Assembly (NCBI GenBank): GCA_017510705.1
Contig: JAFWMO010000010.1
Coordinates: 8,678 to 72,677 of the forward strand
DNA from: Candidatus Saccharimonadota bacterium
Lineage (GTDB): Bacteria > Patescibacteriota > Saccharimonadia > Saccharimonadales > Saccharimonadaceae
Direction of reading: 5' to 3'
DNA: 64,000 nucleotides
Shown: piece by piece, positions 8,054 through 56,748 of the stretch
Position numbering within the stretch: position 1 is the stretch's first letter
How the letters are laid out: each line of letters begins with the position of its first letter
Translations under genes and position numbers: made by a program
Notes under the pieces: generated by a model
The model's database searches: none
The model's input: only the letters and a program-made list of their open reading frames with translations
What the model was told of the DNA's origin: nothing

Positions 8054-8795
8054 TCTGTATATATTTTAGCACAAAAGAATAAATTTTTTCAAGCGGGAGC
8101 CAATTTATTTCCGAGTTGCGTTTAAACCACGTCATCTGGCGTTTTGCTAGATGCCAATCTTCGTAAAAACATTGTTCTTTGGCTTCGTCTAATGTAAGTT
8201 CACCATTGATATATTTCCACGCATACCAATAAATATTGCTTTTCATGGCTCCGCTATCAAAACTATATTTGCTTGCAAGCGCTTTTGTTTCTGCATATAG
8301 CTCACTGCAAAACATTTGGTCAATGCGCTTTTTGAGGCGAGCACGGAGTTCCTCTGTTTCCCATTTTACACCAATCAACAAATAATCGCCTTTTACCCCT
8401 GTTCTGTCTGTACAAGTTTTTTGTTCAAAGTCACCAATTTTGGCTCCGGTAGGGCCTTTGAATTTGTAATCGTAAATTAGTGCGTCAATGTAGAGCCCGG
8501 TACCACCAACGACGATTGGGGCCTTGCCGCAAGCCTTAATTTCTGCAATTTTTTCTTCGGCATAAGTTTTCCAATCCGAAACGGTAAACCTTTTTCCTGG
8601 TTCTACTAAATCTAGGCCATAGTGGGGCACTCCGTCCATTTCTTCTTTGGTAGGTTTGGCGGTGCCAATATCCATGCCTTTATAAATAGCACGGGAGTCA
8701 GCAGAGATAATCTCGCCACCAATTGCTTTGGCGATTTTGATAGAAATGCCTGTTTTGCCAGACCCTGTAGGGCCTAGAATAACTATAGTTTGCAT
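8046..8795 (-). CDS. miaA: tRNA dimethylallyltransferase
   Basis: ILGPTGSGKTGISIKIAKAIGGEIISADSRAIYKGMDIGTAKP is the MiaA signature. Confidence 0.85.
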   Translation of the reverse strand: MQTIVILGPTGSGKTGISIKIAKAIGGEIISADSRAIYKGMDIGTAKPTKEEMDGVPHYGLDLVEPGKRFTVSDWKTYAEEKIAEIKACGKAPIVVGGTGLYIDALIYDYKFKGPTGAKIGDFEQKTCTDRTGVKGDYLLIGVKWETEELRARLKKRIDQMFCSELYAETKALASKYSFDSGAMKSNIYWYAWKYINGELTLDEAKEQCFYEDWHLAKRQMTWFKRNSEINWLPLEKIYSFVLKYIQNE

Positions 8796-11488: not shown

Positions 11489-11563
11489 ATGTTTATTATA
11501 TCATATCCTGTGTGTTATAATACTTGCCAATAGGTGGGAGTACATTAATAGGAGGTGAGAAAA

Positions 11564-12187
11564 ATGAGTGAAATCTACGAACCGAATCTGGAGAAAATGT
11601 ACACATATCTTAGAGGTAGACTTGATGGAGCTGGTTGGGAACAAAGCATCAAAGCCCTAGCATATGCCAGAAAGGCACACGAAGGACAGTTTCGCGAAGG
11701 TAATGGTGCACCGTATATTATCCACCCGATTTCAATGGCTTGTGATGCGATTGCATGCAAAGGTGCAACAGATGATCTGATTGCCGTAATTTTGCTTCAC
11801 GATGTAGTTGAAGATTGTGGCAAAGAACTTGGTGATTTACCCGTGAATGAAACTGTAAGAAAAGGCGTTCAGTATATGACGGTCGATCCATTGTTCTCTG
11901 AAGATAAATCAGATGCAAAAAAGCGTTATTTCCCCGAATTAACGCTCAGCCCGGAAGCTATCATATGCAAAGCGTTCGATCGCAATGCAAATTTAAACGA
12001 TATGGCAGGTTTTGATGAAGCAAGAATCAAAAGAAATGTCATAGAAACGCACGAAAAGCTCATGCCCGTTTTGAAAGAAGCAAAGTATCTTTATCCTGAG
12101 TATTCCGATATGCTCCATACAATTAGGACAAGTTTAAAAAGAACTTTGAACTTATTGGCGAACCAGTACAACATTGACTTAGAATAA
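11564..12187 (+). CDS. stand-alone RelA/SpoT-type HD domain protein (putative small alarmone hydrolase)
   Basis: AHEGQFREGNGAPYIIHP...LLHDVVEDC HD motifs. GGAGG SD precedes ATG 11564 (the track start at 11555 is GTG). TGTTATAAT lies at 11513..11521. Confidence 0.65.
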   Translation: MSEIYEPNLEKMYTYLRGRLDGAGWEQSIKALAYARKAHEGQFREGNGAPYIIHPISMACDAIACKGATDDLIAVILLHDVVEDCGKELGDLPVNETVRKGVQYMTVDPLFSEDKSDAKKRYFPELTLSPEAIICKAFDRNANLNDMAGFDEARIKRNVIETHEKLMPVLKEAKYLYPEYSDMLHTIRTSLKRTLNLLANQYNIDLE

Positions 12188-14361: not shown

Positions 14362-14529
14362 AAGCTTTTGCTATGGCAAAAGCTTTCCGTTCCTCCTTGC
14401 TCAAAAAATCTAGAATTTATTCTAGATTTTTATTCGCTTCGTCGTCCGGTCGAACCCTTCGGGTTCTCGCCCTTCTTATCGTGTATCAGAAGATAAAAAT
14501 AAGTCCCTTTGGGACTTCTTTTTATCTTC

Positions 14530-14606
14530 TGGTGGGTGATGAGGGGCTCGAACCCCCGACCTTCTCGGTGTAAACGAGACGCTCTAGCCAACTGAGCTAA
14601 TCACCC
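14530..14606 (-). tRNA. tRNA-Val (anticodon TAC), CCA encoded
   Basis: Cloverleaf GGGTGAT/ATCACCC acceptor, GCTCAGTTGGCTAGAGC D arm, anticodon loop TTTACAC, GGTTCGAGCC T arm. Confidence 0.9.
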
Positions 14607-14665
14607 GTTCTTTTATTATATCACATCTTTTGATTTTGGGAAAGGCCTCGTGCTATAATAAAATT

Positions 14666-15406
14666 ATGAGCAAAAAATGGAGGCTACTTGCGCTAGCGCC
14701 AGCTGCTACGAGCATGGTCTTCCCTTTTTGCGTTGCAAAAGCACTTGATATTGATAAAGAACGTCTGGCCGAGCAGCTCACGGCTGGCGAGATAAATATC
14801 CCATTCCCAGAAAGTTTTGAAAGATGGCCAGAGCCGGTGGTATATACTCCCGGCGGGACCAATACTGCAAGTACTGCTGATGCGCGTGGCCATATGGTAG
14901 ACGGTATGAAAGTGATCTATTACAAAACTATGGTCTGGGGTGACGTAGCTTCTAGCTTTAGTGAGTTCAAAAAGAACGTAGCGGATACTCTAAATGATGC
15001 ACGAGGTTGGGTGCGGGCGGGGCTTAGATTTGTAGAAGTAAGCCAGGGGCAAGACGTAAATGTAATTTTGTCTGACCCAGCACATCTTGGCATTACGCCT
15101 GGGTGTAGTAGCGAGTTATCATGCACGACTTGGGCAAACCAAGTGATCATCAATGACGTGCGTTGGCGCGAAGGCACAGAACCAAGCCGAGCCGCTGGGA
15201 TGAGTACTAGAGATTATCAGCACATGGTAGTAAACCATGAGGTGGGTCATTGGTTGGGGCATTATGCACATATCGAAGGCTGTACGGCAGAAAATGGTTT
15301 TCTCGGTGGTCCGGCGCCGATTATGTTGCAGCAATCTACTGGGTTGCGCGGTTGTACGAGTTTTAATGCGTGGCCGCTAGATAGCGAACTATGGACTTTA
15401 AGATAA
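14666..15406 (+). CDS. secreted zinc metalloprotease-like protein (HEVGH motif; DUF3152-like)
   Basis: Signal-peptide-like N-terminus MSKKWRLLALAPAATSMVF and a HEVGHWLGH zincin motif. TGCTATAAT lies 6 nt upstream of ATG 14666 (the track start at 14630 is unlikely). Confidence 0.6.
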   Translation: MSKKWRLLALAPAATSMVFPFCVAKALDIDKERLAEQLTAGEINIPFPESFERWPEPVVYTPGGTNTASTADARGHMVDGMKVIYYKTMVWGDVASSFSEFKKNVADTLNDARGWVRAGLRFVEVSQGQDVNVILSDPAHLGITPGCSSELSCTTWANQVIINDVRWREGTEPSRAAGMSTRDYQHMVVNHEVGHWLGHYAHIEGCTAENGFLGGPAPIMLQQSTGLRGCTSFNAWPLDSELWTLR

Positions 15407-27519: not shown

Positions 27520-27560
27520 TAATGTTTATGCTAAAATATTATAGTTTTGTCAAATTAACA

Positions 27561-27728
27561 GGGGTAGAATACAGTAAAATTTGTTTGCGGTTCGCTGCAC
27601 GCCACGAACAAAAAAAATAATTTCAGTCAGGTTCTCACCTATATTTCAGTATAGGATTCGAACCTGTGAAATTATTTTCTTGTTCTTGGGCTTGCTCAAT
27701 GCAAACAAATTTTGCTGTGTTCTACACC
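27561..27728. repeat. 168-nt palindromic (MITE-like) element with 28-bp terminal inverted repeats that overlaps the ileS stop codon
   Basis: The TIR GGGGTAGAATACAGTAAAATTTGTTTGC (27561..27588) matches the reverse complement of 27701..27728 at 25 of 28 positions. An internal 81-nt hairpin spans 27606..27686. Confidence 0.7.
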
Positions 27729-30610
27729 TTTTCTAACGAGATTGTGATGTTTTCGCCGTTTACTTTGGCGATTTCATCATAGGCATAATTGCCGTCTAGC
27801 TCTATATTGTCTGTGAGCACTTCGGCTTTGATAAAGTCTAGGTGCTCTGAAGGGGCTTCTACTGATAACGAGAGGCGGATTTTGTCGCCTGGGGCAAGGC
27901 CGGCCTTTTTGCGGGCGGATTGGATGGCGCGGACAAGCTCGCGGGCATACCCTTCCCTCTTTAAGTCTTCGGTGAGAGTTTTGTCTAATTTTAATTCTTT
28001 GCCGTTTGCTACTGATTTGACGTTTACTTCTTCGGCAATGATTTGCTCATAAAAATCATTTAGCTTTTCACCTGGATAAACGAGATTACTAAGTGGCTGG
28101 CGAATCTTGATCTGGTCTTCGGTGTCGGACCTCTGCATACGGAGCGCAAGAGCATCCGTAATGATATTCCTGGTGCGGGCCATCTCTTCGAGAATCTTCT
28201 CATCTATGTTGCCAGCCTCTGGCCAGTCTAGAAGGTGGACAGATTCTTCTTTGCCAGTCATTTTCTGATATAATTCTTCGGCTAAAAATGGTGTAAATGG
28301 CGCTAGGAGCTTGGCTAGATATATTGATATATAATATAGCGTGCTAAAGGCGGCCTTTTTGTCCTCTTTATTTTCGTTTTTACTGAAGCGGCGACGAGAA
28401 CGACGAACAAACCAGTTGCTCATGTCGTCAATGAACGGCAAAACGGTTTCGAGGGCTTTTGGAAGGTTGTATTCTTCCATACCTGCGGTAATATCGTTTC
28501 TTAATTGATATACACGAGACAGAATCCAGATGTCTAGAGGATTTTTCAAAAATGAAACATTTTCTGAAAAATCTTCGGTATTTAGATTTTCTACCTCAGC
28601 GTAGGTGGTGAAGAAGTCGTAGACGTTCCAGATCATGGAAAGTTTGCGGGAGATGTCCGAGACATCCTTATCTAGCATGGCGAAATCTTCGCCAGACATG
28701 ACTGGACTCATAAGTAGCAAAAATCTGTAGGCGTCGGCAGAGTATTGGTCCATTAGGATGTTTGGATCGGTGTAGTTGCCAAGGGATTTGCTCATTTTGC
28801 GGCCATCATTACCGGCAAGAGTACCAGTAGTAATCACGTTTTTGTAGGCATTTTTTGCGCCTTTCTTGGCCTTTTCGCCAAAAGCACCAATGGAGGCAAG
28901 GGCCGTATTTACAGCGTGAACATAATAGAACCACGCACGGACTTGACCGACGTATTCTACAATGAAATCGGCTGGGTAGTTTTTTTCAAACTTCTCTTTA
29001 TTCTCAAACGGATAGTGAAGCTGTGCGAATGGCATAGAGCCAGATTCAAACCAACAGTCTAAGACTTTTTCGATACGAGTGAAATGCTCGCCATCAATAT
29101 CGAATTCAATCTCGTCCACCCATGGGCGGTGGTAATCTTCTAGTTTTTTGCCGGATAGTTCGTATAATTCTTCGTAAGAACCAATGACTTTGATTGAGCC
29201 TTTGTCTCCCTTCCAAACAGGCATAGCAGTAGCCCAGAAACGATCACGAGAAAGGTTCCAATCTGGAGCAGCTTCGATATTTTTGGCGAAGCGGCCGTGT
29301 TTTAGATATTCTGGGAACCAGTTGATATTCTCATTTTCCTCAAGCATCATCTGTTTTTGGCCGTCTATATCAAAGAACCAAGATGGAAAAGCGCGGTACA
29401 TAATACGCTCTTTGGAACGTGGGTTAAATGGGTATTCGTGTTGGATATATTCAATCCTGAAGACGATGCCCTTCTCTTCTAGACATTTGGCGATAAACTT
29501 GTTGGCGGCCCAAATTTGAATACCATTTTCATCAGTGTCGCGGACACCGAGAGCGTGAAGTTTGTCGGCGTATTCTGGCAAGTAATAACCATTCTCATCT
29601 AGAGTATCAATGAAGCCAATTTCGGATTCGTGCTCGCGGTAGAGCCCATAATCATCTTCGCCATAAGCTGGGGCGATATGAACGATACCAGTGCCGTCTT
29701 CTTCACCGACGAAATCTGCGGTAAAGACTTTGCATTTGGTCCCGTCCAATGATTCGTATTCTAAACCAGCAAGCTCAGAGCCTTTGACTACTTTTTCTGG
29801 TTTCTCTGAACCAAAGATTTGTTCGGCGCGTTTTACTGCTACGACCAACCTTTCACCGTCTATATTATATACACCGTAATCTAAGTCTTTTGATACAGCA
29901 AGAGCGCGGTTGGCCATTAGAGTCCAAGGTGTAGTAGTCCAAGCTAAGAGATAAAAATCCGGGGTTTTGAATTTTACATAGGCGGATGGGTCGGTAACCA
30001 TCTGGTAGGCGTCGTTATCCATGGTGACTTCGGCTTTGGAAACAGGTGTCGCAAACTTGGTGTCATACATAAGAACCTTGCGGCCTTCGTAAATTTTTCC
30101 AGCTTCGTATAATTTTTTGAACGCCCACCAAACAGATTCCATAAAATCTTTGTTCATAGTGCGATAGCAATTGTCAAAATCCACCCAGCGACCAACACGA
30201 TCAATAGTACCGCGCCATGCTTCCGAATTAGCAACCATGGATTCGCGAGCCTTAATTATATAGTCTTCAAGAGACCACTTGGTGCCAATCTCACGGCGAT
30301 CGGTAATACCAAGCTGTTTTTCAACAAAATTCTCTGCTGGAAGGCCGTGGCAATCCCAACCCCAACGGCGTTCTACGCGGTAGCCATTCATAGTCCAAAA
30401 ACGCGGGACAGCATCTTTTACCACAGAGCTAAGAAGCGTGCCATGGTGTGGAAGGCCGGTGATAAATGGTGGGCCATCATAAAAAACATAGGATTTGTCT
30501 ATCGGGCGATTTTCAACCGATTTTTCAAAAGTTTTGTTTTTCTTCCACCACTCAATGAGCGATTTTTCGTATTCTATGGCCTTGCGGCGCTCTCCGGCTC
30601 TATATTTCAT
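27722..30610 (-). CDS. ileS: isoleucyl-tRNA synthetase, type 2 (eukaryote-like)
   Basis: YDGPPFITGLPHHGTLL HIGH region, KMSKS and 962 aa. TGGTATAAT lies 7 nt upstream of the ATG. Confidence 0.9.
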   Translation of the reverse strand: MKYRAGERRKAIEYEKSLIEWWKKNKTFEKSVENRPIDKSYVFYDGPPFITGLPHHGTLLSSVVKDAVPRFWTMNGYRVERRWGWDCHGLPAENFVEKQLGITDRREIGTKWSLEDYIIKARESMVANSEAWRGTIDRVGRWVDFDNCYRTMNKDFMESVWWAFKKLYEAGKIYEGRKVLMYDTKFATPVSKAEVTMDNDAYQMVTDPSAYVKFKTPDFYLLAWTTTPWTLMANRALAVSKDLDYGVYNIDGERLVVAVKRAEQIFGSEKPEKVVKGSELAGLEYESLDGTKCKVFTADFVGEEDGTGIVHIAPAYGEDDYGLYREHESEIGFIDTLDENGYYLPEYADKLHALGVRDTDENGIQIWAANKFIAKCLEEKGIVFRIEYIQHEYPFNPRSKERIMYRAFPSWFFDIDGQKQMMLEENENINWFPEYLKHGRFAKNIEAAPDWNLSRDRFWATAMPVWKGDKGSIKVIGSYEELYELSGKKLEDYHRPWVDEIEFDIDGEHFTRIEKVLDCWFESGSMPFAQLHYPFENKEKFEKNYPADFIVEYVGQVRAWFYYVHAVNTALASIGAFGEKAKKGAKNAYKNVITTGTLAGNDGRKMSKSLGNYTDPNILMDQYSADAYRFLLLMSPVMSGEDFAMLDKDVSDISRKLSMIWNVYDFFTTYAEVENLNTEDFSENVSFLKNPLDIWILSRVYQLRNDITAGMEEYNLPKALETVLPFIDDMSNWFVRRSRRRFSKNENKEDKKAAFSTLYYISIYLAKLLAPFTPFLAEELYQKMTGKEESVHLLDWPEAGNIDEKILEEMARTRNIITDALALRMQRSDTEDQIKIRQPLSNLVYPGEKLNDFYEQIIAEEVNVKSVANGKELKLDKTLTEDLKREGYARELVRAIQSARKKAGLAPGDKIRLSLSVEAPSEHLDFIKAEVLTDNIELDGNYAYDEIAKVNGENITISLEKV

Positions 30611-41727: not shown

Positions 41728-44124
41728 TTATAGTTCGCCCCAATTTTGGCCTTGAGATATTTCTACAACCAATTTGACGTTTAGCTCTGGAGCGACGGGC
41801 TCCATTTTGTTTTTAAGAATCTTGGTAACTTCGTCTGCGATATTTTCATCACATTCTACGATAAGAGAGTCGTGAACTTGCATGATTAGCTCGGCTCCAT
41901 CTGGGAGAGCTTTGTCTACGGCGATCATTGCGCGCTTCATAAGATCCGCCTCGGTGCCCTGAATTGGCATATTGGCGGCGGCACGTTCCGCAGCTTGGCG
42001 AATAAGGAAGTTTGGCGAACTTACATCTGGGGTAGGACGGCGGCGACCGTAAAAAGTCTCCACATAGCCTTCGTTTTTGGCCTGAGCCAAAATATCTTCT
42101 AGCTTTTTCTTGATAGGGGCGCGGAGCTTGAAATAATCTTCTATAAAGGTCTTGGCTTCCGCCATAGACATACCGGTAGCGTCCGAAAGTCCTTTCATAC
42201 TCATACCATAGAGTACGCCAAAATTAATAGTCTTGGCGGCGCGACGCTGGTTTTTGGTGACTTCGGTAAGTGGGACATGAAAAGCTTCGGAGGCGGTTTT
42301 GGTGTGAATATCTATATCGTTGTTGAAATCGTCAATTAGGGCTTGATCACTAGATAGGACAGCTGCGAGACGGAGTTCAAACTGCGAATAATCAGCAGAG
42401 ACCAAAACTTTGCCACGAGGAGCAATAAAACCAGTACGAATACGCTTCCCCTCTTCTGTGCGCACTGGGATATTTTGGAGATTTGGGCTAACCGAACTAA
42501 GGCGGCCAGTGGCGGTGACATTTTGCGTAAAGGTGGTATGGACACGACCATTCTTGTCTGCCAAGTCTGACATCGGCATAATGTAGGTGGAAAGAAGTTT
42601 TGCGGCCTCGCGGTATTCGATAAGCTTTGGAATAATTGGATGTACATCTTTTAGTTTTTCAAGCTCTTTGGCGCCAGTAGAGTAACCACGCGTGGTTTTT
42701 TTGATGCCTTTAGTAGGGAGAGCTAAATCTGTAAATAACACTTCGGAAAGTTGTGCTGGGGAGTTGACGTTAAATTCTTTGCCAGCAAGTGCGCAGACTT
42801 CTGTTTCTAATTTTTTGACGATACTTTCATATTCTTTTTCTAGTGACTTGAAATAAGCGCGATCTATGAGCATTCCCTTTTCTTCCATTTTGTAGAGGAC
42901 TGGAATAAGTGGAAGGTCAAAATTTAAAAGTACATCTAGGAGTTTTGGTGTACGTTCTAAAATCGTGAGTTGCTCATGGTAGGCAAAGGCGAAATCTTCT
43001 GGAGCTTCGTCGCTCCTAGAAAGAGGGTTGATGAGGAAAGCGGCTTGAGAGAGGTCCCAAAAGGGCACGCCGGACAAAATCTTTTTGGCAACTGTCTCGT
43101 CTGAATGCATCAAACTCTTGATGTCCCAATCGATGATGGCTGGCGGGGCCTGGCGCTCACCCGCTATCTCGGACTGCGTCGCCTTGCCAGGCTCCGGAGG
43201 CCCGTCGATGGCGGGCTGAGTGCCACCCGCCACACCCTCTTCGCCGCCCGGCACAGATATCTTGCGGATGAGGGAGTTGAATTCAAGTTTTTTGAGGCCG
43301 GAGATGGTACGGTCTCGATCAAAAACAAAATCTGGGATTTTGGCAAGGTCTACAGGGGCGTCAAACATAATCTTTGCGAGTTCGCGAGACATGTAGGCGG
43401 AATTTTTTCCTGCTTCAAGTTTGGTCCGGACTGAACCAGAAATTTGTTCAATGTGTTCGTAAATGCCATCTAGGGTGCCAAAATCATTTAATAATTTGGC
43501 GGCGGTTTTTTCGCCAATGCCTGGAACCCCTGGAATGTTATCGGAAGAATCACCCTTCAAGGCTTTGAGGTCTAAGAACTGAGATTTTTTGATACCATAT
43601 TTTTCTTCTAGCTCTGGGACATTTATTTGTTCAATATTGGTAAAACCTTTTAAGATGCGCCACATGTGAGTGTTGCTATCTACGATCTGAAGCATATCAA
43701 GATCGGAAGAAATGATGAAAGTCTCGTACTCGCAAAATCCGTCTGGGCCTACAGTCTCATCAGCCTCACGACTAAGCGTGCCAATGATGTCATCTGCTTC
43801 GTAATTGTCAATTTCTACGAAAGCCCAACCAAGGTTTTTGATTAGCTCTTTTAGTAGTGGAATTTGAGCATAAAAATCATCTCCAGGTTTTACTCTGCCG
43901 GCTTTGTAATCTGCATAAATTGCACGACGACGCGAGACGGAAGTTTTGGAATCCCAAGCTACTACAACTTTGGTAGGATTTAATTTTTTGACGATTTCCA
44001 TGGCAATGGCCGCAAAACCATAAATGCCACCAGTAGGCGTGCCATCTGGCAAACTAAGTGCCCCCATAGCATAATAACCTCTATAGAAAACAGATTTGCC
44101 GTCGATAAGAACTAAACGCTTCAT
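41728..44124 (-). CDS. polA: DNA polymerase I
   Basis: 5' nuclease domain (LIDGKSVFYRGYYA), polymerase motifs A, B and C (DYSQFELR, RRAAKTINFGVLYG, QVHDSL). Confidence 0.9.
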   Translation of the reverse strand: MKRLVLIDGKSVFYRGYYAMGALSLPDGTPTGGIYGFAAIAMEIVKKLNPTKVVVAWDSKTSVSRRRAIYADYKAGRVKPGDDFYAQIPLLKELIKNLGWAFVEIDNYEADDIIGTLSREADETVGPDGFCEYETFIISSDLDMLQIVDSNTHMWRILKGFTNIEQINVPELEEKYGIKKSQFLDLKALKGDSSDNIPGVPGIGEKTAAKLLNDFGTLDGIYEHIEQISGSVRTKLEAGKNSAYMSRELAKIMFDAPVDLAKIPDFVFDRDRTISGLKKLEFNSLIRKISVPGGEEGVAGGTQPAIDGPPEPGKATQSEIAGERQAPPAIIDWDIKSLMHSDETVAKKILSGVPFWDLSQAAFLINPLSRSDEAPEDFAFAYHEQLTILERTPKLLDVLLNFDLPLIPVLYKMEEKGMLIDRAYFKSLEKEYESIVKKLETEVCALAGKEFNVNSPAQLSEVLFTDLALPTKGIKKTTRGYSTGAKELEKLKDVHPIIPKLIEYREAAKLLSTYIMPMSDLADKNGRVHTTFTQNVTATGRLSSVSPNLQNIPVRTEEGKRIRTGFIAPRGKVLVSADYSQFELRLAAVLSSDQALIDDFNNDIDIHTKTASEAFHVPLTEVTKNQRRAAKTINFGVLYGMSMKGLSDATGMSMAEAKTFIEDYFKLRAPIKKKLEDILAQAKNEGYVETFYGRRRPTPDVSSPNFLIRQAAERAAANMPIQGTEADLMKRAMIAVDKALPDGAELIMQVHDSLIVECDENIADEVTKILKNKMEPVAPELNVKLVVEISQGQNWGEL
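43140..43252. repeat. GC-rich palindromic element inserted in frame in polA (family member A)
   Basis: There is an abrupt GC-rich block inside AT-richer coding sequence. Its arms are GGCGCTCACCCGC and GCGGGCTGAGTGCC. It shares an identical 25-mer, TCGCCTTGCCAGGCTCCGGAGGCCC, with 51540..51564. Confidence 0.7.
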
Positions 44125-46554: not shown

Positions 46555-48111
46555 CTATTTAGCGATGCAACGGACGGAGCGACCGTAGGTACGGTAGTAA
46601 CTATATTGTGGAAAGATATCGCTAGTATTCATACGAAGACCATACATGTTGTTGCTATTGTAACGTGTAGATGACCAAAAGTAGCCGAAAGATCCCCTAT
46701 AAAGTACCGTATCATTGAGGAAGTAACCCGAAAGAGGAAAACGACCGGCGTTACGAAAATTAGTATAAGCTGGATTGCCAGCAATGTCGCCAGTAGCACC
46801 AGAAATGGCATTAGCCAGTTTCTGGTATTCACCGCCACCCTTATTGGTGCCAGAATTCGCAATGGCCCCGCCAGTAGGCATACGCCAGCCAAATGGGCAA
46901 ACATCTTCGTCGGCATCTATGGCGGAGCTAGGGCTATCATAATTAGTACCAGATTCTGTCCCGTCGCCATAGCAATATGAGCCAGCACTAGCAGCACAAT
47001 AATTATAGTATCCACCCGCTTTCCATTGGCCGATATTGTCTAAGCCACCACCATTGGAGCCGGTGTAGATGTAATTCTTATTGGACACATTGATAAGAGG
47101 CGCAGAGTAACTAGTAGAACCATTCCAGTTGGTAGAGACTGCAGCTGTGGCATATTTGCCACTAGCATCTGTAGCCGGGTCACGTGGCGGGGTAGTACCA
47201 AATAAGTATCCAAGTGAAGTATCTGTGGCATTAGTATTGGTACTGTCCATAATGGATTGGACATTGGAATTGGTGAGGTCTATGGCTAAGTTGTCTAGTA
47301 ACCAGCAGCGGTTGTCTGCTAATTTGCCTACGTTGTAGACGGCTTCGTCGCGAGTATCAATGAGTTTGATGATAGGAGTTTCGCCATTCAAGCGCGTTAC
47401 GGAATTACAAATAGACGTACTCATGTCTTGCATTTTGTAATAGCCCTTGAATTTTGTAACACCTTGCACCGCGCTAAAAGCGTCGTGAAAAGAAACTGGA
47501 GCGGGATTGGCGACGACTGCAAAATTAATTGTATTAGTGTACTCACCCGGGTCAATATCATCACTGGCCTTGGCGGCAATACGAAAATTAAGCCCTGTGA
47601 GAACGGCAGAATCTACGGAAAAGATGGGATTAAGAGTATTGGTAAGACCATTATAATTAGACCACGCACCTGGATCGCCAGCTTTTTCGGTGCTAGTGCC
47701 ATTGCCAGCAAAAGTGCTAGCTTTGATACTATATCCCCAAGTGTCATCCGTGATTAATGTGCCCAGGTCTGCGTCTGCGGCAATACTAGAAAATTTTGAA
47801 GTAGTGCCAGTCTGGGTGAGATCCGAGGTAGTGCTACTAGTGGATGCAGAGACAACATACCCAGAGACATTGTTGCTTTCCACATTAAGAGTTACAATGT
47901 TGCTACTACGAGTGGCACCTGGAGTGATATCGTGAATATAAATATCATTGCTGGAAAGTGTGGCGGTGAGGGTGGGATTTAATGTGAACTGAATTTCTAC
48001 ATCAGCAGAGCCACTTTCGCCAGTTGCTCTAGCCTCATTAATATACACACTACTACATAACGTAGGAAAAAGTAGTAGTGTGCATATTGATAGGGCTAGT
48101 CTACGCTTCAT
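46555..48111 (-). CDS. secreted protein with C-terminal Fibrobacter-succinogenes-paralogous (FISUMP, TIGR02145-like) domain
   Basis: Signal peptide, and a C-terminal region with CWLLDNL, FGWRMPT, GYFWSST and GRSVRCI motifs. Confidence 0.65.
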   Translation of the reverse strand: MKRRLALSICTLLLFPTLCSSVYINEARATGESGSADVEIQFTLNPTLTATLSSNDIYIHDITPGATRSSNIVTLNVESNNVSGYVVSASTSSTTSDLTQTGTTSKFSSIAADADLGTLITDDTWGYSIKASTFAGNGTSTEKAGDPGAWSNYNGLTNTLNPIFSVDSAVLTGLNFRIAAKASDDIDPGEYTNTINFAVVANPAPVSFHDAFSAVQGVTKFKGYYKMQDMSTSICNSVTRLNGETPIIKLIDTRDEAVYNVGKLADNRCWLLDNLAIDLTNSNVQSIMDSTNTNATDTSLGYLFGTTPPRDPATDASGKYATAAVSTNWNGSTSYSAPLINVSNKNYIYTGSNGGGLDNIGQWKAGGYYNYCAASAGSYCYGDGTESGTNYDSPSSAIDADEDVCPFGWRMPTGGAIANSGTNKGGGEYQKLANAISGATGDIAGNPAYTNFRNAGRFPLSGYFLNDTVLYRGSFGYFWSSTRYNSNNMYGLRMNTSDIFPQYSYYRTYGRSVRCIAK

Positions 48112-48269
48112 TTCACCACCTTGTTAGTTTGATATTGGCGGCGCCTCAATAAAAATCGACACCGTGCGGGTGTCTTAAACCATTTATCGTCACTGCATAC
48201 ATAAGTACTTAGTGCGGCACGGTGCCGATTTACAAGTACTTATTTATAAAAAAGTGCAGTGATATTATA
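48112..48269 (-). promoter_or_regulatory. structured 5' leader with aptamer-like domain, terminator and competing antiterminator (riboswitch or attenuator candidate)
   Basis: -10 TATAAT (reverse complement of 48264..48269). P1 CACUGCA/UGCAGUG. Paired AAGUACUU copies. Terminator GACACC/GGUGUC followed by UUUUU (48148..48174). A 15-bp alternative pairing links 48214..48231 with 48153..48170. Confidence 0.55.
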
Positions 48270-48306: not shown

Positions 48307-49107
48307 TTAAATAGTCAAGAGATATTCAATCTTGGCGTTGCGACGAGCGTCGTCGTCTGCTTTTGGCAAATCTTCCCTACTGGAATAATCTTCAAAGATT
48401 GGAAGGACGTTTTTGATCTCACCGTCATAAATTGGTGGCTTGTCGTAAACGCTCCAGAGGATAATGCGGAGACTTGGTGCGTTTTTGGCATAAAATTCTA
48501 GAGCTTTGGAAGTGGCACGGATAAACTCCTGCTCGGTTTCTCTAGAATGGCGCCAAGCGCGGCCAGAAAGATATTTTTCGGTGACTACTGGAGAAATCGC
48601 AATCATCAAAATTGTTGCTTCGTAATTCCCTGCTATGAGTAGCTCTAGCAAGATGCCTTCCATTTCTGGATCTAGAAGCGTAACATCTAGGACAATGTCA
48701 TATCCACCTTTGATGAGCTCGGACAAAGTAAGAAATAGCATGATGGTGCTAAACTCGTCTGTCATTTTGCGAAGGTTTTCGTCGCCGTAGTAATCTTTGA
48801 TTTCTTGGTAGTGCGGGTGATATTCCACAAAGCGACGTGCAGCCATTAGAATCGGCTCAAAATTATTTTTTTCACAGTAGGCTTCTACGGCTGGGAGAAT
48901 TTGAGTAGTCTTGCCAGAGCCAGAGAGCCCTGCGATACGGATAAAACGGTGGTTTTTGGTGGCGGCAATCGTAAAATCTTCTACCACCTTTTTGAGAATG
49001 GCTGGATATTCGGCAAGCCCAACTTGCCACTCTGGCTTGACCTCGCTTGGCCAGTGAGCTCGCATATATTCTATAACTTTGACTAACCGTGGATCACTTT
49101 GAGACAT
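48307..49107 (-). CDS. zeta-toxin-like P-loop kinase family protein
   Basis: IAGLSGSGKTT Walker A; size and pattern resemble the zeta toxin / AAA kinase fold. This is weak. Confidence 0.4.
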   Translation of the reverse strand: MSQSDPRLVKVIEYMRAHWPSEVKPEWQVGLAEYPAILKKVVEDFTIAATKNHRFIRIAGLSGSGKTTQILPAVEAYCEKNNFEPILMAARRFVEYHPHYQEIKDYYGDENLRKMTDEFSTIMLFLTLSELIKGGYDIVLDVTLLDPEMEGILLELLIAGNYEATILMIAISPVVTEKYLSGRAWRHSRETEQEFIRATSKALEFYAKNAPSLRIILWSVYDKPPIYDGEIKNVLPIFEDYSSREDLPKADDDARRNAKIEYLLTI

Positions 49108-50060
49108 TTGTCACCTTTTTTAATTTCAATAGTTTTGATATTTTTAAACACTCTGTACTCACCTTCGGCCTGGAGCTCTACTGTGGCGGGCTTTAAAAAT
49201 TCTAACTTGTCGCCAGTGGTTTCTTCTCCTGGCGTACGGACAAAAATCGCTTTTACCATTAGTACGAATAGTCTTGGAAAACTGGTGAGTTTGCGATTCA
49301 TACTGCGAAAAATTTTTGGTTTCAAATAATCATCTCCACCTTTCATCACACGACACATGGACTTGCCGGAAAGCGCGCAATAATCGCTGGCCTTTTTTTC
49401 TGCAGGCTTGCCATTAATGGTAAATGGTGGGATAAAAACTTTTTTGTGGCGGTTTTTGAAATACCATTTTGAAAGAGCAAGATAAGAGCGCCAGGAAGAT
49501 TTGGAACCTTTTTGCATTTTTTTTCTGAATTTTGGCTCATCAAAAATCTCACAGACTTCGGCGGTCATGCCGATGGTCATGTAGCAGGACGCATAGCGGA
49601 AAAACTTGCCATCCACATAAATCTCGAGAGGATATAACCTCTGGACGGGGCCTGCCACACATTTTCCCCCAAATCCGCAGGTCCCAGGGTCCCCCTTATG
49701 TGTGTCACCCGTCCATGTTTCTATTATCTTGAAAAGTTTATCTGTACTCATCGTTCCGAGAGTGCGGGCGAGGTCGTTGAAATTGCCGTATGGGAGGACA
49801 GCAAGTGTGGCGTCTTTGCCAGATTTCAAAATACCATTGGATGCGATAATGCCAGTAGCATCACCGCCGGCAGAAAGCACCAAATCACCATCTTTTAGGA
49901 GCTTGGCAAACTTGGCGGCGTTTTTGTCTACGTCGGTAGGCTCAACTTCGTATTTGCCAATGATAAAACCCTTTAATTCCCTGGCTTTTGACAGAACTTC
50001 TTTTTCTACATCAACAAAACGAGACGAGCGGGGATTGTAAACAATGAGAAGACGGCGCAT
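49083..50060 (-). CDS. diacylglycerol/lipid kinase family protein (DAGK_cat, YegS-like)
   Basis: LLIVYNPRSS start, and the motifs LSAGGDATG and LPYGNFNDLARTLG. Confidence 0.65.
   Translation of the reverse strand: MRRLLIVYNPRSSRFVDVEKEVLSKARELKGFIIGKYEVEPTDVDKNAAKFAKLLKDGDLVLSAGGDATGIIASNGILKSGKDATLAVLPYGNFNDLARTLGTMSTDKLFKIIETWTGDTHKGDPGTCGFGGKCVAGPVQRLYPLEIYVDGKFFRYASCYMTIGMTAEVCEIFDEPKFRKKMQKGSKSSWRSYLALSKWYFKNRHKKVFIPPFTINGKPAEKKASDYCALSGKSMCRVMKGGDDYLKPKIFRSMNRKLTSFPRLFVLMVKAIFVRTPGEETTGDKLEFLKPATVELQAEGEYRVFKNIKTIEIKKGDKCLKVIHG
49643..49714. repeat. GC-rich palindromic element inserted in frame in the lipid kinase gene (family member D)
   Basis: Arms GGACGGGGCCTGCCACACAT and ATGTGTGTCACCCGTCC. 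72 nt equals 24 codons. The terminal motif GACGGGGCCTGCC resembles GGCGGGGCCTGGC of the polA element. Confidence 0.6.
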
Positions 50061-50457: not shown

Positions 50458-51432
50458 TTACCTTAGATATTCGTGTAGTTTTTTGGTGTCTTTGTTTTTG
50501 CGAAGTTTAGAAAGGGCTTTGGCTTCAATCTGACGGATACGCTCACGAGTAACATCAAATTCGTTGCCAACTTCTTCTAGAGTGTGCGGACGACCACCGC
50601 CGATGCCAAAGCGAAGGCGGATGATTTTTTGTTCCCTTTCGGTGAGAGTGGCAATAATTTCGGACAATTGTTCCTTCAAAATTTGGTTTGCGGCGGAATC
50701 TTCTGGGGAGTCGCGCTCCTCGTCTTCTACGAAATCACCAAGCACGGAATCCTCGTCGTCGCCCTCGCGACCAACAGAAGCATCTAACGAGGCGATATCT
50801 TGTTTGATGCGCATCACATAATCCACCTTTTCTGGCTCCATGTCGAGTTCCTTGGCGATTTCTTCGTTGGTAGGCTCACGGTTTAATTCTGAGGTGAGTT
50901 TGCGAGTAGTACGAAGGACTTTGTTGATGGTTTCTACCATATGCACTGGAATACGAATGGTGCGGGCTTGATCTGCAATAGCACGAGTAATAGCTTGGCG
51001 AACCCACCAAGTAGCATAAGTAGAAAACTTAAAACCTTTGGCTGGATCAAATTTTTCTACGGCGCGGAGGAGACCGGTGTTTCCCTCTTGGATAAGATCA
51101 AGAAAATCTAGACCGCGGCCACCATAACGCTTGGCGATAGAAACCACAAGACGCATGTTTGACTCTACCATTTTGTCTTTGGCTTTTTTGTCACCCTTTA
51201 CGATACGCTGAGCGAGATCGGCTTCTTCTTCTGGGGTAAGAAGTGGGATTTTGCCAATTTCGCGAAGGTATAATCTAACTGAATCATCTGCAAAAGCATC
51301 AACGTTTTCGGCGGTGATGGCAAGCTCTTCGTCCGAAAGCTCTTCTTCGCTTTCAAGGTCGTCTGTGCCAGGTTCGTCAAAATCAAAATTCAAGTCTTTT
51401 GCATTCAAAATATCATCATCTTTCAAGCTCAT
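50458..51432 (-). CDS. rpoD: RNA polymerase sigma-70 factor
   Basis: Regions 1.2 to 4.2 are present ([49 protein letters not shown]). The start is set at ATG 51432, directly behind the promoter. Confidence 0.9.
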
Positions 51433-51440
51433 TAATGTAG

Positions 51441-51469
51441 AGTATAGACTAAAAATAGAAATTTTGCAA
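51441..51469 (-). promoter_or_regulatory. rpoD promoter TTGCAA-17-TATACT, 8 nt upstream of the ATG
   Basis: The reverse complement reads TTGCAA, then 17 nt, then TATACT, then CTACATTA, then ATG. Confidence 0.6.
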
Positions 51470-51470
51470 G

Positions 51471-51587
51471 AGCGGACTAACGCGCCCGTCTTGGGCTGCG
51501 TCGCCTCGGCCCGTCGCCACGGGCGAGGCGCGCTCATCCTCGCCTTGCCAGGCTCCGGAGGCCCTGCGACGGGGCGTTAGCTCCGCT
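51471..51587. repeat. GC-rich palindromic element (family member B) between dnaG and rpoD; provides the dnaG stop codon
   Basis: 20-nt terminal inverted repeats AGCGGACTAACGCGCCCGTC and GACGGGGCGTTAGCTCCGCT. Internal hairpin CGCCTCGGCCCGT/ACGGGCGAGGCG. The 25-mer is shared with the polA element. Confidence 0.75.
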
Positions 51588-53211
51588 GTAAATCATAGAT
51601 TTTTTTCATGATTTCTTCGTATTCTTCACTTTCTTCATCAAGTTTAGAAAGTTGCTCGTTTAAGGCGGAGATTTGTTGTTTTTTGGATTCCCTATCATAT
51701 AGAGCTAGGAGGTCGGAGGCTTCCTTTTCGTAATCTGTGTCTTTGATATTTTCGTGATCGCGATTGAATACCAATTCTAGCTCATCCAATTTAGCATCAT
51801 CTTCTGGCGGCTCAAAAGGAATTTTAGTTTTGGTGACACCGCCAAAAATCTTGAGGGCCAAGAGACTGTCTTCGTATTTTTTGAGTTTATCGGATTTTAA
51901 TTCGGTTTTTGGCTTTTTGAGATAACGGTGTGAGACGGCCTGTTCTAGTTTTTTGTTCAGCCTCTCACCTTTTTCGCGCAAAATTTCTACTTCTACATCT
52001 AGTTTTTTAGCGACTTTTTTCTCGTAACTAGCGCGTTCTATTTCGTCGTTTACGAAGCTGAGGAGCTTTAAAGCAACGTCGGAATATTGTTTTTTGCCGG
52101 TAGCAGTGCGAAGATCTAGATTTTCTTCGTATTTGTTTAAAAGCCAATCCACCGCCGGCACGCGCTCTTCTACGGCCTGTTTCCAGAGATTTGGATCTTT
52201 CTGGATGAGCTCGTCTGGATCTTTGGCGCCATGGTAATTGGAAATTACAGAAAGATTAATACCGAGGTCGCCAGCAAGCATAATGGCGCGTTCGGTGGCT
52301 TTGACTCCAGCTTCGTCTCCATCATAGGCAAGACGAATATCACTAGTAAGATTGGACAAAATTTTGAGGTGTTGATCTGTCATGGCGGTACCAGAAGTAG
52401 CTACGGCCTCTCTGACGCCAGCTTGGTGAGACGATATAACATCCATATTGCCTTCTACAATCACGACAAAACCATTTCTGCGAATGGACTCCTTGGCGTT
52501 GCAAAGGCCAAAAATAAAACGAGATTTGTTGAATAAAATCGTATCGGAAGTGTTGAGATATTTTGGCTCACCCTTGCCAATAATACGCGCGGTAAAGCCG
52601 ATAATATCGCCACCAGTATCAACAAACGGAACCGTCATGCGATCACGAAACATATCGTTGTCGTAGGCACTTAAAAGGCCGGCGGTTTTTAATTCTTCTT
52701 TTGTAAAGCCGCGTTTTTTTAAGGCTTCGTAGAGCATCTTTCCCTGCCCGGGGGCATAGCCAATTTTGAATTCAGAAACAGCCCAGCGATTGAGATTGCG
52801 TTTATAAAAAACGTATTCACAAACAGTTTTATTACGGACAAGACAAGCTTGATAATATTTGGTAGCGAGGGCTAAAGCTTCCTTGGCACGAGCTTTTTTC
52901 TTGGCAACATTAGGATCGCCACCGCGATATTTGGTAATATCTACACCGGCACGAGCGGCAAGTTTTTCTAAAGCCTCTTTAAAACTAATCCCTTCTACTT
53001 CCATAAGGAAGGTAAAAATATCACCGCCTTTGCCGGCGGAAAAATCATGCCAAATGCCCTTTTCGGGAGAAACCATGAAACTTGGGGTTTTGTCTACACC
53101 CCAAGGAGAACGGCCTTTGAGATTTCGGCCTGCACGTTTTAGCTCCACATACTGCCCCACTACATCTTCCACCGCCAGTCTGGATTTGATTTCCTCCTTC
53201 AGATCGTACAT
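51577..53211 (-). CDS. dnaG: DNA primase
   Basis: DKTPSFMVSPEKGIWHDFSAGKGGDIFTF zinc-binding-domain homolog without Cys/His ligands; TOPRIM domain (IVEGNMDVIS, YDGDEAG). Confidence 0.85.
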   Translation of the reverse strand: MYDLKEEIKSRLAVEDVVGQYVELKRAGRNLKGRSPWGVDKTPSFMVSPEKGIWHDFSAGKGGDIFTFLMEVEGISFKEALEKLAARAGVDITKYRGGDPNVAKKKARAKEALALATKYYQACLVRNKTVCEYVFYKRNLNRWAVSEFKIGYAPGQGKMLYEALKKRGFTKEELKTAGLLSAYDNDMFRDRMTVPFVDTGGDIIGFTARIIGKGEPKYLNTSDTILFNKSRFIFGLCNAKESIRRNGFVVIVEGNMDVISSHQAGVREAVATSGTAMTDQHLKILSNLTSDIRLAYDGDEAGVKATERAIMLAGDLGINLSVISNYHGAKDPDELIQKDPNLWKQAVEERVPAVDWLLNKYEENLDLRTATGKKQYSDVALKLLSFVNDEIERASYEKKVAKKLDVEVEILREKGERLNKKLEQAVSHRYLKKPKTELKSDKLKKYEDSLLALKIFGGVTKTKIPFEPPEDDAKLDELELVFNRDHENIKDTDYEKEASDLLALYDRESKKQQISALNEQLSKLDEESEEYEEIMKKIYDLQRS

Positions 53212-54572: not shown

Positions 54573-55072
54573 TTGAGCTCCTCTATGCTGCCATTAATAT
54601 CATCAAGTGCGCGGTGTGCGTCGCGCTTAGTAAACTTTTTGTCCAGGGCGTTTTCAAAATAAATCTTCCAGGCAGAAACATCAAGCATACGATAATGCAG
54701 GCGCTTGTTTAATTCTGGCATTTCGCGTTCAATAAACTTGCGATCCTGGTGAATAGAATTGCCGGCAAGATAAATTTCTTTACCAAAATACTTGTCTAAG
54801 AATTCTAATAGTTCCCTTTCTACTTCCGCGGCCGGCTTACCATTTTTGTTTTGTGCAACAAGGGCGTCGTAGGACTCTTTGTTTCTTTCCCAAAACTCGC
54901 CGACCATGCGCTCTTTTATTAGCTTGTCGTCTACTTTTACTACGGCTTCGTAGGTAGCAATTTCATTTAAGTCCATGTCTGTAGCGATAGCCGCGACTTC
55001 TAGAATCTTGTCTTTTACTGGTTCAAGGCCAGTCATTTCTAAATCAATCCAAAGTAGTTTTGCTTTTTTCAT
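54548..55072 (-). CDS. orn: oligoribonuclease
   Basis: LLWIDLEMTGLEPVKDKILEVAAIATD DEDDh exonuclease motif I; HRALDDI motif III. Confidence 0.85.
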   Translation of the reverse strand: MKKAKLLWIDLEMTGLEPVKDKILEVAAIATDMDLNEIATYEAVVKVDDKLIKERMVGEFWERNKESYDALVAQNKNGKPAAEVERELLEFLDKYFGKEIYLAGNSIHQDRKFIEREMPELNKRLHYRMLDVSAWKIYFENALDKKFTKRDAHRALDDINGSIEELKWYLTFLK

Positions 55073-56748
55073 TACATTTCCTCCGGGATTTCAATTCCCA
55101 AAATATTTAGTCCGTGAGTCATAACGTTCAAATATTTTTCTACAATCTTGGCGCGTTCGGCTTCTTCTGGGGCACCAGCGACTGGGCAATTTTCGTAAAA
55201 TCTAGAAAATTCTTGGGCGAGTTCGTAGAGGAAATTCGCAACTTTGTGTGGGGCCATCTCATTTACAGCTTCGGACAATACATCTTTATACCCCAAAAGC
55301 TTCTTCATTAAATTTCTTTCAAATGGCGTCAGAACATTCGCACGCGAACCGCTTCGCTCACGCCCATCGTTATGGGGTTCGCTTGCTAGAAGCTCCCCGT
55401 TGGTCGCTATGTTCGCTTTGCGAATGTTCTCGACGCCTGCGAGGATCTTTTTGGCGCGGACACAGGAGTAGAGGAGGTAAGGGCCGGAGTTGCCGGTCAT
55501 TTTGACCGATTCTTTTGGATCAAAGATGATGTTGCCGCCCATTTTATATTTCAAAAATGCGTACTTAGTGGCAGCGAGAGAGACTTTTTTGTCCTCGGAA
55601 TTATATTCGTTTTTTAACTCGTCTTTTACCATATTTAATACATCTACGGCTTTCAAGAAATTGCCTTTTCTGGAAGACATTTTGACATTGCCTGGGAGTT
55701 TGACGAGGCCGTGAGTTAGGTGAGTGGTCTTTTTTACAAGTTCTGGCGCATATTGTTCTATGGATTTCAAGACTACCTTCATGTATTCGAGCTGTTCGTT
55801 GCCAGTGATGACGACGGATTTATCAAAATGATAATCTTCCCACTTGGTGAAGATAAGACCAACATCCTTTGCCTCGTAAGTTGGGACACCTTCTTTGTTG
55901 ATAAACACGCGGGTATGGAGGCCGAATTTGTCACCATTGAAAATAACAGCGCCATCGCTCATTTCGTAAACGCCTTTTTCTAATTGTTCTTTTACTGTCT
56001 GGAGGCCAAGAGCGGCTACGGTAGATTCTGGGTAATACTTATCAAACTTGATACCAATGGTGGCGTAGAAATTTTTGAAATAATCGTAGGATAGTTCCCT
56101 GCCTTTCCAATAAAGGTCTGAGAGCTCGGTGCCATGGATGTCTTCGGCGTTTATCTTGTAAATCTCTTTGTTCAAATCGGTGATTTCGGCTTTGGCCTTA
56201 TCATCATCTTCGTAAGCGGTGGTGCCCTCAATATAACACTTGGCAATATCTTCGATAGTTAGGTCTTTGATGTCTTTTTGTTTTAAGATATACATGGTTT
56301 TGGCGACGTGAAGACCAACATCACCGCCGAAATTGGCACGAATTACGTTGGCGCCGGCGTACTCGTAAAGACGGCTGATGGAGTCACCCATAATGGAAGT
56401 GTAGAGATGCCCGACGTGCAGAACTTTGAATGGGTTTGGATCGCTAAATTCACAAATGATAGTCTTGCCCTCAAGGTCGCCGCAGGATAAATCTAGGGTA
56501 TCTATTGAATTCTTTAATGCATCGTCCGCAATGGTAAAGTTAATAAAACCTGGTGCAGTTGGAGTGCCGATATTCAATTCTTCGGCGATTTGCATCGGGG
56601 CTTTGTGAAGCACGCTAGCGAGCTTTAGAGGGGCGTTTGAGGAATAATCCGCGTCGATATTTGCCGGAGCAGCGGTAATTTCGGGATCAAAATCAAGGTT
56701 GTATAAATTTTTGATAGCATCTTTTAATTGGTTCTCTATCTCTTGCAT
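55072..56748 (-). CDS. argS: arginyl-tRNA synthetase
   Basis: The HVGH (HIGH) motif, MSSRKG (a KMSKS-like motif) and a DALR-type C-terminus. TGGTATAAT lies 6 nt upstream of the ATG. Confidence 0.9.
   Translation of the reverse strand: MQEIENQLKDAIKNLYNLDFDPEITAAPANIDADYSSNAPLKLASVLHKAPMQIAEELNIGTPTAPGFINFTIADDALKNSIDTLDLSCGDLEGKTIICEFSDPNPFKVLHVGHLYTSIMGDSISRLYEYAGANVIRANFGGDVGLHVAKTMYILKQKDIKDLTIEDIAKCYIEGTTAYEDDDKAKAEITDLNKEIYKINAEDIHGTELSDLYWKGRELSYDYFKNFYATIGIKFDKYYPESTVAALGLQTVKEQLEKGVYEMSDGAVIFNGDKFGLHTRVFINKEGVPTYEAKDVGLIFTKWEDYHFDKSVVITGNEQLEYMKVVLKSIEQYAPELVKKTTHLTHGLVKLPGNVKMSSRKGNFLKAVDVLNMVKDELKNEYNSEDKKVSLAATKYAFLKYKMGGNIIFDPKESVKMTGNSGPYLLYSCVRAKKILAGVENIRKANIATNGELLASEPHNDGRERSGSRANVLTPFERNLMKKLLGYKDVLSEAVNEMAPHKVANFLYELAQEFSRFYENCPVAGAPEEAERAKIVEKYLNVMTHGLNILGIEIPEEM
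55328..55434. repeat. palindromic GC-rich element inserted in frame in argS (member C)
   Basis: Terminal inverted repeats GTCAGAACATTCGCA and TGCGAATGTTCTCGAC. Internal pairs GCGAACC/GGTTCGC and CCCAT/ATGGG. It encodes ENIRKANIATNGELLASEPHNDGRERSGSRANVL. Confidence 0.65.

Follow-up and report, generated by a model that had tools for sequence, protein, structure and literature searches.

The gene for arginyl-tRNA synthetase (argS; the enzyme is referred to as ArgRS) in a 64,000-nucleotide stretch of a gut Saccharibacterium genome (contig JAFWMO010000010.1; the whole of this stretch is called the window below) carries a 113-nucleotide (nt) palindrome within its reading frame, and the question raised by this locus is what such a sequence is and how it comes to lie in the coding region of an essential enzyme. 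A preliminary description of the same DNA regarded it as an in-frame palindromic insertion in a variable ArgRS loop and as a possible member of a repeat family, and proposed a relationship to a second palindrome at the end of ileS. The comparisons reported here support that reading as essentially right apart from the ileS relationship. We propose that the argS element is probably one copy of a dispersed, non-autonomous and selfish family of palindromic elements of the Saccharibacteria, similar in kind to the Rickettsia palindromic elements (RPEs), and that it is tolerated in a permissive loop.

The host gene encodes a 558-residue protein with the Pfam domains Arg_tRNA_synt_N, tRNA-synt_1d and DALR_1, and this protein is 100% identical to an NCBI entry named 'arginine--tRNA ligase [Candidatus Saccharibacteria bacterium]'. 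The element occupies residues 438-474 and two nucleotides of codon 475, lies within the DALR domain as delimited by Pfam, and its translation, GVENIRKANIATNGELLASEPHNDGRERSGSRANVLT, immediately follows the ArgRS helix YLLYSCVRAKKIL; a peptide such as ANIATNGELLASEPHNDGR would be expected from a translated insert. The palindrome is real and non-random. As sense RNA it folds at -57.8 kcal/mol, compared with -36.9 +/- 3.5 kcal/mol for 200 dinucleotide shuffles, none of which folds as well (z = -5.98), and folding as DNA gives z = -5.56. The terminal inverted repeats described earlier are present, with a perfect repeat of 12 nt rather than 15 (AGAACATTCGCA at 55331-55342 and TGCGAATGTTCT at 55419-55430), which GGCGTC/GACGCC pairs lengthen into an outer stem of 18 bp that has one bulge and spans 55325-55437. 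Nested stems also form as proposed, although in the minimum-energy fold the partner of GCGAAC (55344-55349) is the GTTCGC at 55411-55416 and not that at 55376-55382, and of the three GTTCGCT repeats claimed only two exact copies (GTTCGCTT) exist. The host gene, the parts of the element and its two sibling copies in the window are as follows.

55072-56748, minus strand: argS host gene, identified by its open reading frame (ORF), Pfam domains and NCBI identity.
55325-55437, minus strand: the whole 113-nt palindromic element, which folds and contains a match to the family covariance model R1 at 55332-55428 (71 bits, E = 6e-21).
55419-55437, minus strand: outer stem P1, mRNA 5' arm GGCGUCGAGAACAUUCGCA, from the inverted repeat and the fold; locus-specific.
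55325-55342, minus strand: outer stem P1, mRNA 3' arm UGCGAAUGUUCUGACGCC, from the inverted repeat and the fold.
55411-55416, minus strand: inner stem P2, 5' arm, mRNA GCGAAC, from the minimum-energy fold; helix 2 of the family model.
55344-55349, minus strand: inner stem P2, 3' arm, mRNA GUUCGC, from the minimum-energy fold.
55391-55408, minus strand: hairpin 1, AGC-GA-CC-AACG-GG-GA-GCU, from the fold; a hairpin in this position is common to all 16 seed copies.
55351-55386, minus strand: hairpin 2, the most conserved part of the family, from a pattern match and pairing in all 16 seed copies; its core GAACCCCAUAACGAUGGGCGUGA lies at 55358-55380 and encodes the peptide EPHNDGRE.
51468-51588, minus strand: sibling copy of the GC-rich type D in the dnaG-rpoD spacer (R1 match at 51479-51578, 67 bits).
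43126-43260, minus strand: sibling copy in the polA linker, residues ~289-333 (partial R1 match at 43157-43217, 18 bits).

The copies share a common architecture, in which a long outer stem (P1) and a short stem (P2) lead to hairpin 1, a short linker and hairpin 2, giving the whole a Y shape. Hairpin 1 often has G-A/G-A internal loops and a loop of the NACG type, and the tip of hairpin 2, CCCCGU-RACG-ACGGG, is nearly invariant. Each of the 16 seed copies forms the Y shape individually, and all nine pairs of hairpin 2 form in every one of them, with double-sided changes at seven of the nine. In an alignment of 21 copies, 83% of cells pair compared with 60.7% in shuffles, double-sided changes are present at 26 of the 30 base pairs, and the covariation score of 0.517 compares with 0.170 in shuffles (none of 500 as high) and with 0.10-0.15 when the partners are slid against each other. 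The covariance model, R1, was built from a structure supplied by hand followed by model-based realignment; MAFFT with RNAalifold recovered hairpin 2 only, because the outer helices were misaligned. Conservation of pairing extends to the argS site itself, where loop DNA taken from nine relatives has folding energies of about -60 to -98 kcal/mol (an empty allele gives -9.3) and adopts one architecture with unrelated outer-stem sequences, and where the outer stems of the window and of the orthologue L049 keep their complementarity through compensatory changes. Scanning the window against Rfam 15 gave no match at the gathering score, and permissive scans of both copies gave chance-level matches only.

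Membership in a repeat family, which had been suggested earlier, is borne out by the many copies found both by BlastN and with the covariance model. BlastN searches with the sequence subtypes revealed related copies outside the argS loop, and R1 identified 21 copies in 955 kb comprising argS-centred Saccharibacteria loci and the window. The window itself has three, in argS, in the dnaG-rpoD spacer and in polA, and the same three were found in a filter-free scan; the argS element and the GC-rich in-frame palindromes of the window thus belong to one family, within which the former is a sequence subtype, rather as the preliminary description had supposed. A metagenome scan with the hairpin 2 core pattern returned at least 120 stretches, and R1 gave 82 matches, about 76 of them full length, in 80 of these pattern-selected loci (479 kb). 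About 18 of the 80 are of high GC content (> 0.6) and look like chance matches to the pattern; three of these give short hairpin-tip matches and none a full-length one. A distant-similarity BlastN search against phage records gave no match, and full-text literature searches turned up no account of such elements in Saccharibacteria or Patescibacteria.

About 96 copies could be placed relative to genes. Some 55-58 lie in the sense direction within long ORFs, 17-18 are antisense within long ORFs, and about 12 are intergenic or in short ORFs, the intergenic copies being in the sense direction either just upstream of genes or between co-oriented genes. An impression from the initial 21 copies that all are in the sense direction was abandoned, as the larger sample includes antisense copies. 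The host genes fall into at least 22 clusters and are housekeeping genes: ArgRS at two hot spots (after residue ~60 and in the DALR loop), a class-I aminoacyl-tRNA synthetase (aaRS), Obg, an RMKL-like methyltransferase, MnmA, TatD, DnaX, RecX, an EF-Tu-family GTPase, FemAB, TsaD, a P-type ATPase, Dus, a U5-methyltransferase, FtsJ, Pta, GatB, Fmt, GyrA, FtsK, PriA, PolA and a DAGK-family kinase. The copies are read in each of the three sense frames (..EPRNDGRE.., ..SPVTTGA.. and ..RPWRRAE..) and also in antisense frames, and five of the six frames are free of stop codons in 57-69% of copies compared with 30-45% of shuffles. Unlike subtypes occupy identical sites in different lineages in the argS loop, the argS N-terminal site, the polA linker and the DAGK gene. 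At the methyltransferase site the inner part of the copy in L085 is the reverse complement of that in L108 and L133 while the outer arms read alike, and the presence of either orientation at one codon position indicates inversion in place or repeated re-occupation.

What recurs from site to site is the inner core and not the terminal arms. In one subfamily a core of about 70 nt is nearly identical in FemAB, the class-I aaRS, MnmA, DnaX, the EF-like GTPase and two spacers, and the distal 10-25 bp of the outer stem differs by locus and is always self-complementary. The 15-nt terminal inverted repeat of the preliminary description matches only its own partner arm in the window, a count at chance level, and a BlastN-short search with the whole argS element found no further copy there. 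These terminal repeats are locus-specific, so that a census of them finds nothing, and the transposed unit is the core. Further insertions are nested at the apex of hairpin 2, as in L052 (a 69-nt second palindrome) and L102 (a 33-nt insert), and the peptide of the L052 insert, DGATKREKSELARISERGSDVSK, is nested in type A and type B hosts alike (P0030, P0077, P0080 and P0110). The L052 palindrome (4858-4926), which contains GAGAAATCCGAGC-TTGC-TCGGATTTC, lies in the argS element with a GACGG direct repeat on both flanks.

The ArgRS site provides the clearest view of filled and empty alleles, and 120 closest homologues (67-100% identity, apparently all from Saccharibacteria) were compared. When aligned with solved ArgRS structures the segment corresponds to a variable linker, as the preliminary description had it, of about 22 residues in Escherichia coli and about 11 in Neisseria. 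Short loops are present in 15 of the 120. Ten of these (P0012, P0021, P0023, P0037, P0097, P0102, P0103, P0106, P0111 and P0113) are empty alleles that share a 17-residue loop of the NCSSDKELENYTYNIY type (NCxxDxExENYxYNIY), P0031 has a distinct short loop, AKGNVQSAMQPHALVPE, and P0051, P0063, P0073 and P0100 contain only remnants of an element. The other homologues have 22-25 additional codons, with at least four peptide subtypes at the one site (A, RANIATNGELLASEPRNDGRERSGSR; B, AFEEHISQRGKYGATEAHNDGPEGAFRK; C, ETVSREGYDPSEVTEPRDGGREGTGSRD; and D, ARVADISDRRGVRSLARRGLAPAARGDGPAGRAPE), and nested inserts are also present within some of the filled loops. The segment of about 35 residues noted earlier is in frame, at residues 438-474, and its net gain over the empty alleles is 69 nt (23 codons) and not 35 codons. 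A type-D copy is present at the identical argS site in L051, with 85% identity over 72 nt to the element at 51468 in the window.

In the ArgRS tree, empty alleles are scattered among filled ones, and the empty P0023 and the filled P0017 are 98.2% identical outside the loop. DNA alignment of the 98%-identical filled/empty pair, L175 and L176, shows 91-100% identity throughout the gene with the exception of one block of about 230 nt; this block has the loop at its centre and has diverged at synonymous sites too. From these alignments, alleles of the argS site appear to be swapped between strains by homologous recombination, and the pattern seen is not that of de novo insertion or excision; exchange of this kind would also give rise to the patchy distribution of filled and empty alleles in the tree. 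A comparison of filled and empty alleles, aimed at insertion boundaries and target duplications, covered the N-terminal site of argS, the DALR loop (in backgrounds 98% identical) and the DAGK gene; it defined no junction, because the loop is replaced rather than interrupted and the flanks have recombined. An AlphaFold2 model of ArgRS (from a 63-sequence alignment; mean pLDDT 74) gives residues 444-470 a pLDDT below 50 between the confident helices 422-447 and 475-485, which fits an unstructured surface loop in a model of moderate overall quality that has a second low-confidence stretch at 296-364.

A second insertion hot spot of ArgRS lies in the N-terminal domain, after residue ~60 of the window protein, where the window itself is empty. 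It is filled in L003 (10177-10271), L054 (10188-10283), L097, L102 and L118, with subtypes A-D and nested forms in many relatives, and it accounts for protein lengths of up to 643 residues.

Starting from family membership, a conserved and covarying fold, presence or absence and subtype turnover at particular sites, and the mosaic recombined block, a history of the argS element may be proposed. A core of about 75-80 nt, consisting of the short stem and the two hairpins, would have spread to many genomic sites, and at each of them its flanks, self-complementary and specific to the locus, would form the long outer stem. The family is GC-rich and stop-free in five of the six frames, so insertions into permissive surface loops of essential proteins would keep the frame and persist. 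The argS copy, which follows the first helix of the anticodon-binding (DALR) domain and precedes the second, would be translated, as conservation of the reading frame suggests, into a hydrophilic and unstructured loop of about 37 residues that ArgRS most likely tolerates and does not need. The stem could be maintained either because hairpin formation is selected for or because one arm of the palindrome serves as a template for repair of the other, and spread between strains would occur through homologous recombination of the flanking argS sequence.

Several observations weigh against this proposal. At the sites compared, neither a transposase nor a target-site duplication nor a clean junction of filled and empty alleles could be identified, and for this reason mobility is deduced from the distribution of the copies alone. 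Only three copies are present in the 64 kb of the window, and the outer arms of the argS subtype recur nowhere else. The ancestral loop has left no trace in filled ArgRS alleles, and a simple insertion does not account for this; one possibility is that the outer stem was extended outward by templated copying until it reached constrained residues. Translation of the insert and its neutrality for ArgRS are also steps that we infer. Finally, the structural conservation, the ratio of 58 sense to 17 antisense genic copies and the greater stability of one strand could mean that there is a function at the level of the nucleic acid.

This last point is the basis of the alternative that the element is a recruited functional RNA or DNA module, such as an mRNA stability or RNase III site, a hairpin 2 with tandem G-A loops that binds protein, or a recombination or uptake signal, with the peptide as a by-product. 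Covariation far above controls, the unbroken pairs of hairpin 2 in 16 copies, and the position of the intergenic copies, in the sense direction and upstream of genes or between co-oriented genes, all speak for such a module; so do the strand running from hairpin 1 to hairpin 2, which is the more stable by 8-9.5 kcal/mol in 73 of 75 copies whichever way the element lies in the gene, and the bias of genic copies to the sense direction, which exists even though the antisense frames are at least as open. However, at least 17 genic copies are antisense and one site can hold either orientation, there is no match to an Rfam family, the hosts are functionally unrelated housekeeping genes, and element-free alleles are common. 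G-U pairs are moreover balanced between the strands (93 compared with 95, and 27 compared with 21), with symmetric counts of G-U and A-C, which is a better fit to a DNA palindrome than to a constraint on a single RNA strand; this balance, and the presence of the complement in the mRNA of at least 17 genes, argue against a required mRNA structure. We therefore regard a recruited module as unlikely, and the strand stability and the sense bias may reflect a single-stranded intermediate or a mild effect at the RNA level.

Selection could instead act on the protein, the segment being a lineage-specific ArgRS insertion domain with a role in tRNA binding or host interaction and its palindromy being incidental. 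The segment is kept, always in frame, in most of the 120 homologues, and its central peptide (S/T)E(P/A)R(N/D)DG(R/P)E recurs across subtypes. But other genes read this DNA element in different frames (SPVTTGA and RPWRRAE) and antisense, the peptide subtypes at the argS site are almost completely different while base pairing is retained, empty alleles occur in 98%-identical backgrounds, AlphaFold2 gives residues 444-470 no structure, and the folding is 6 standard deviations (SD) beyond shuffles. This alternative is already largely refuted, and we consider it highly improbable. There is slightly more, and still very little, to recommend a classical MITE (miniature inverted-repeat transposable element), that is, a deletion derivative of an insertion sequence (IS) moved in trans by a DDE transposase acting at terminal inverted repeats (TIRs) and leaving target-site duplications (TSDs). 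The length of about 100 nt, the TIRs, the many copies and the lack of coding capacity of its own are MITE-like. The terminal arms, however, are the least conserved and locus-variable part and the interior is conserved, insertions are nested at hairpin apices, no direct repeats were seen beside the copies (the sole GACGG repeat flanks the nested insert in L052), and no parent IS was noticed among the called genes of the fetched loci, where no systematic search for one was made.

A selfish palindromic family tolerated in loops is therefore the reading that we prefer, and it can be taken further, though more doubtfully, to a mobile element that is specified by structure. In this speculative scheme a Y-shaped core of about 78 nt would enter centres of dyad symmetry (hairpin apices, including the tip of its own hairpin 2), turn the flanks palindromic, perhaps flip in place, and continually remodel surface loops of essential proteins across the Saccharibacteria, possibly by way of a single-stranded intermediate and a host recombinase.

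The system to which this family is most similar is that of the RPEs of Rickettsia (Ogata et al. 2000, 2002, as summarised in PMC2229807 and PMC1166351). These are stem-loops of 105-146 bp that are present in frame in 19 ORFs and also in RNA genes, and in gmk the insert is part of the translated enzyme, which remains active (PMC2229807); of the 728 RPEs of R. felis, 85 lie within ORFs (PMC1166351). Both families are palindromic repeats of about 100-150 nt forming long stem-loops (113 nt and z = -6 for the argS element), both have dispersed copies in small, reduced genomes (hundreds for RPEs; 21 in 955 kb and 82 in 479 kb here), and both have many copies in spacers and, in frame, within conserved housekeeping genes, with presence or absence among orthologues in the present family. 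In neither is a transposase known, and the tolerance of the insert that is seen for gmk among the RPEs is likely for ArgRS too. They differ in host (Saccharibacteria, of the candidate phyla radiation (CPR), as opposed to Alphaproteobacteria), in the core, which here is a three-way junction with a conserved hairpin tip rather than a simple long hairpin, and in the locus-specific arms and both orientations at one site of the present family. The likeness is drawn from features and not from sequence, and as phylum and GC content differ, sequence homology to RPE-1 to RPE-8 is unlikely; the elements are best classed among RPE-like protein-coding palindromic repeats, as a new family of these.

Other small repeats with open frames that are fused in frame to host genes and form stable RNA stem-loops include the protein-coding palindromic repeats of Wolbachia and in-frame MITEs such as the 107-bp form of Correia, ERIC, YPAL and the Coxiella QMITEs (PMC2229807, PMC5896051), among which YPAL further resembles the present family in targeting sites at or adjoining dyad symmetries. 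In those elements the TIRs are conserved, TA termini or TSDs are often present and a parent IS has been identified for some; none of these features was found here, and the present family lacks the conservation of TIRs among copies by which MITEs are recognized. Repetitive extragenic palindromic (REP) sequences, their bacterial interspersed mosaic elements (BIMEs) and their REP-associated tyrosine transposases (RAYTs) (PMC3733652) are likewise GC-rich, multi-copy imperfect palindromes in which the hairpin rather than a TIR is conserved, but REPs are 20-40 nt long, extragenic and carry a GTAG or CGTC tag, whereas the present unit is 75-113 nt, is mostly intragenic and has no identified RAYT. The defining features of REPs and BIMEs are accordingly not those of this family. 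The GC clusters of yeast mitochondria are GC-rich hairpins in an AT-richer genome that invade coding sequences in frame and spread in small genomes. They are organellar, much shorter and simpler hairpins, and no sequence relationship is expected. Integron attC sites are imperfect palindromes of variable sequence and conserved structure; the tip is branched in some cases, and recognition is of the folded single strand. They flank gene cassettes, have R and L boxes and need IntI, none of which was seen here, and they provide a lead as to mechanism only. For placozoan mitochondrial genomes, repeat expansions have been described (PMC7813641).

Some further features of the window and of related loci deserve mention. 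The polA copy (in the ORF at 41728-44124, minus strand) is an in-frame insert with a GC content of about 0.7 in the linker of DNA polymerase I; its hairpin 2 is missing and it is nested inside a second palindrome, and the orthologue in L048 (21211-21384) retains a complete copy. The copy in the dnaG-rpoD spacer has a GC content of 0.76, folds at -75 to -80 kcal/mol and is oriented along the direction of transcription. The ORF called at 50458-51537 runs into this element, so that the start of rpoD is probably downstream, at MSLKDDD. At 49610-49740, within a gene of the DAGK family (49083-50060, minus strand), the window encodes about 25 additional residues, FKIIETWTGDTHKGDPGTCGFGGKCVAGPVQ. The corresponding loop contains a Y-shaped element in L003, L052 and L009 and is empty in L049 and L051; the window insert has a weak palindrome, GGACGGGUGACACACAU...AUGUGUGGCAGGCCCCGUCC, with an overall z of -0.5, and may be a decayed or a different element.

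The palindrome at the end of ileS (27557-27732) is AT-rich and nearly perfect, with a length of 176 nt, 32-nt arms and a folding energy of -81 kcal/mol, and its right arm overlaps the last codons of the gene. Its proposed kinship with the argS element, through a shared TTCGCT(G)CACGCC motif, does not hold: R1 gives no significant match (11.7 bits, E = 0.34, among other short palindromes), the sequence is single-copy among all the DNA fetched, and it was rejected as a member of the family. It contains GGATTCGAACC, which is similar to the T-arm of a tRNA, and ARAGORN finds no tRNA in it. Strong folding is also apparent at 14404-14700, where a 49-nt inverted repeat (14459-14559) abuts a tRNA at 14533-14606 (z about -6.6), and at 48029-48250, with a 28-nt inverted repeat at 48029-48099 and more hairpins near 48166.

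Elsewhere, argS of the distant Saccharibacterium L034 (CP064992.1, described as a complete genome; ~11300-11630) can be read through the same loop only with two frame shifts, which are probably long-read indel errors, or else mark a pseudogene. A 92%-identical relative, L048, has a 582-residue serine recombinase with a Resolvase domain and small ORFs upstream of argS (7100-8848) that are absent from the synteny of the window and are probably an integrated mobile element.

The best-known examples of selfish palindromes inserted in frame come from Rickettsia, and Wolbachia and a number of other bacteria provide related cases. The Saccharibacteria have tiny genomes, like Rickettsia, and live as episymbionts of other bacteria, and an independent and abundant family in this group would mean that in-frame palindromes recur in unrelated lineages with reduced genomes. 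The family accounts for much of the variation in ArgRS length among close relatives (534-643 residues in the homologues compared) and probably for that of other core proteins of the phylum, and such segments should not be treated as homologous protein characters in annotation or in phylogenetic analysis. With more than 100 covarying copies it is also a natural data set on how palindromes stay symmetrical, and on the tolerance of essential enzymes for random insertions in their loops.

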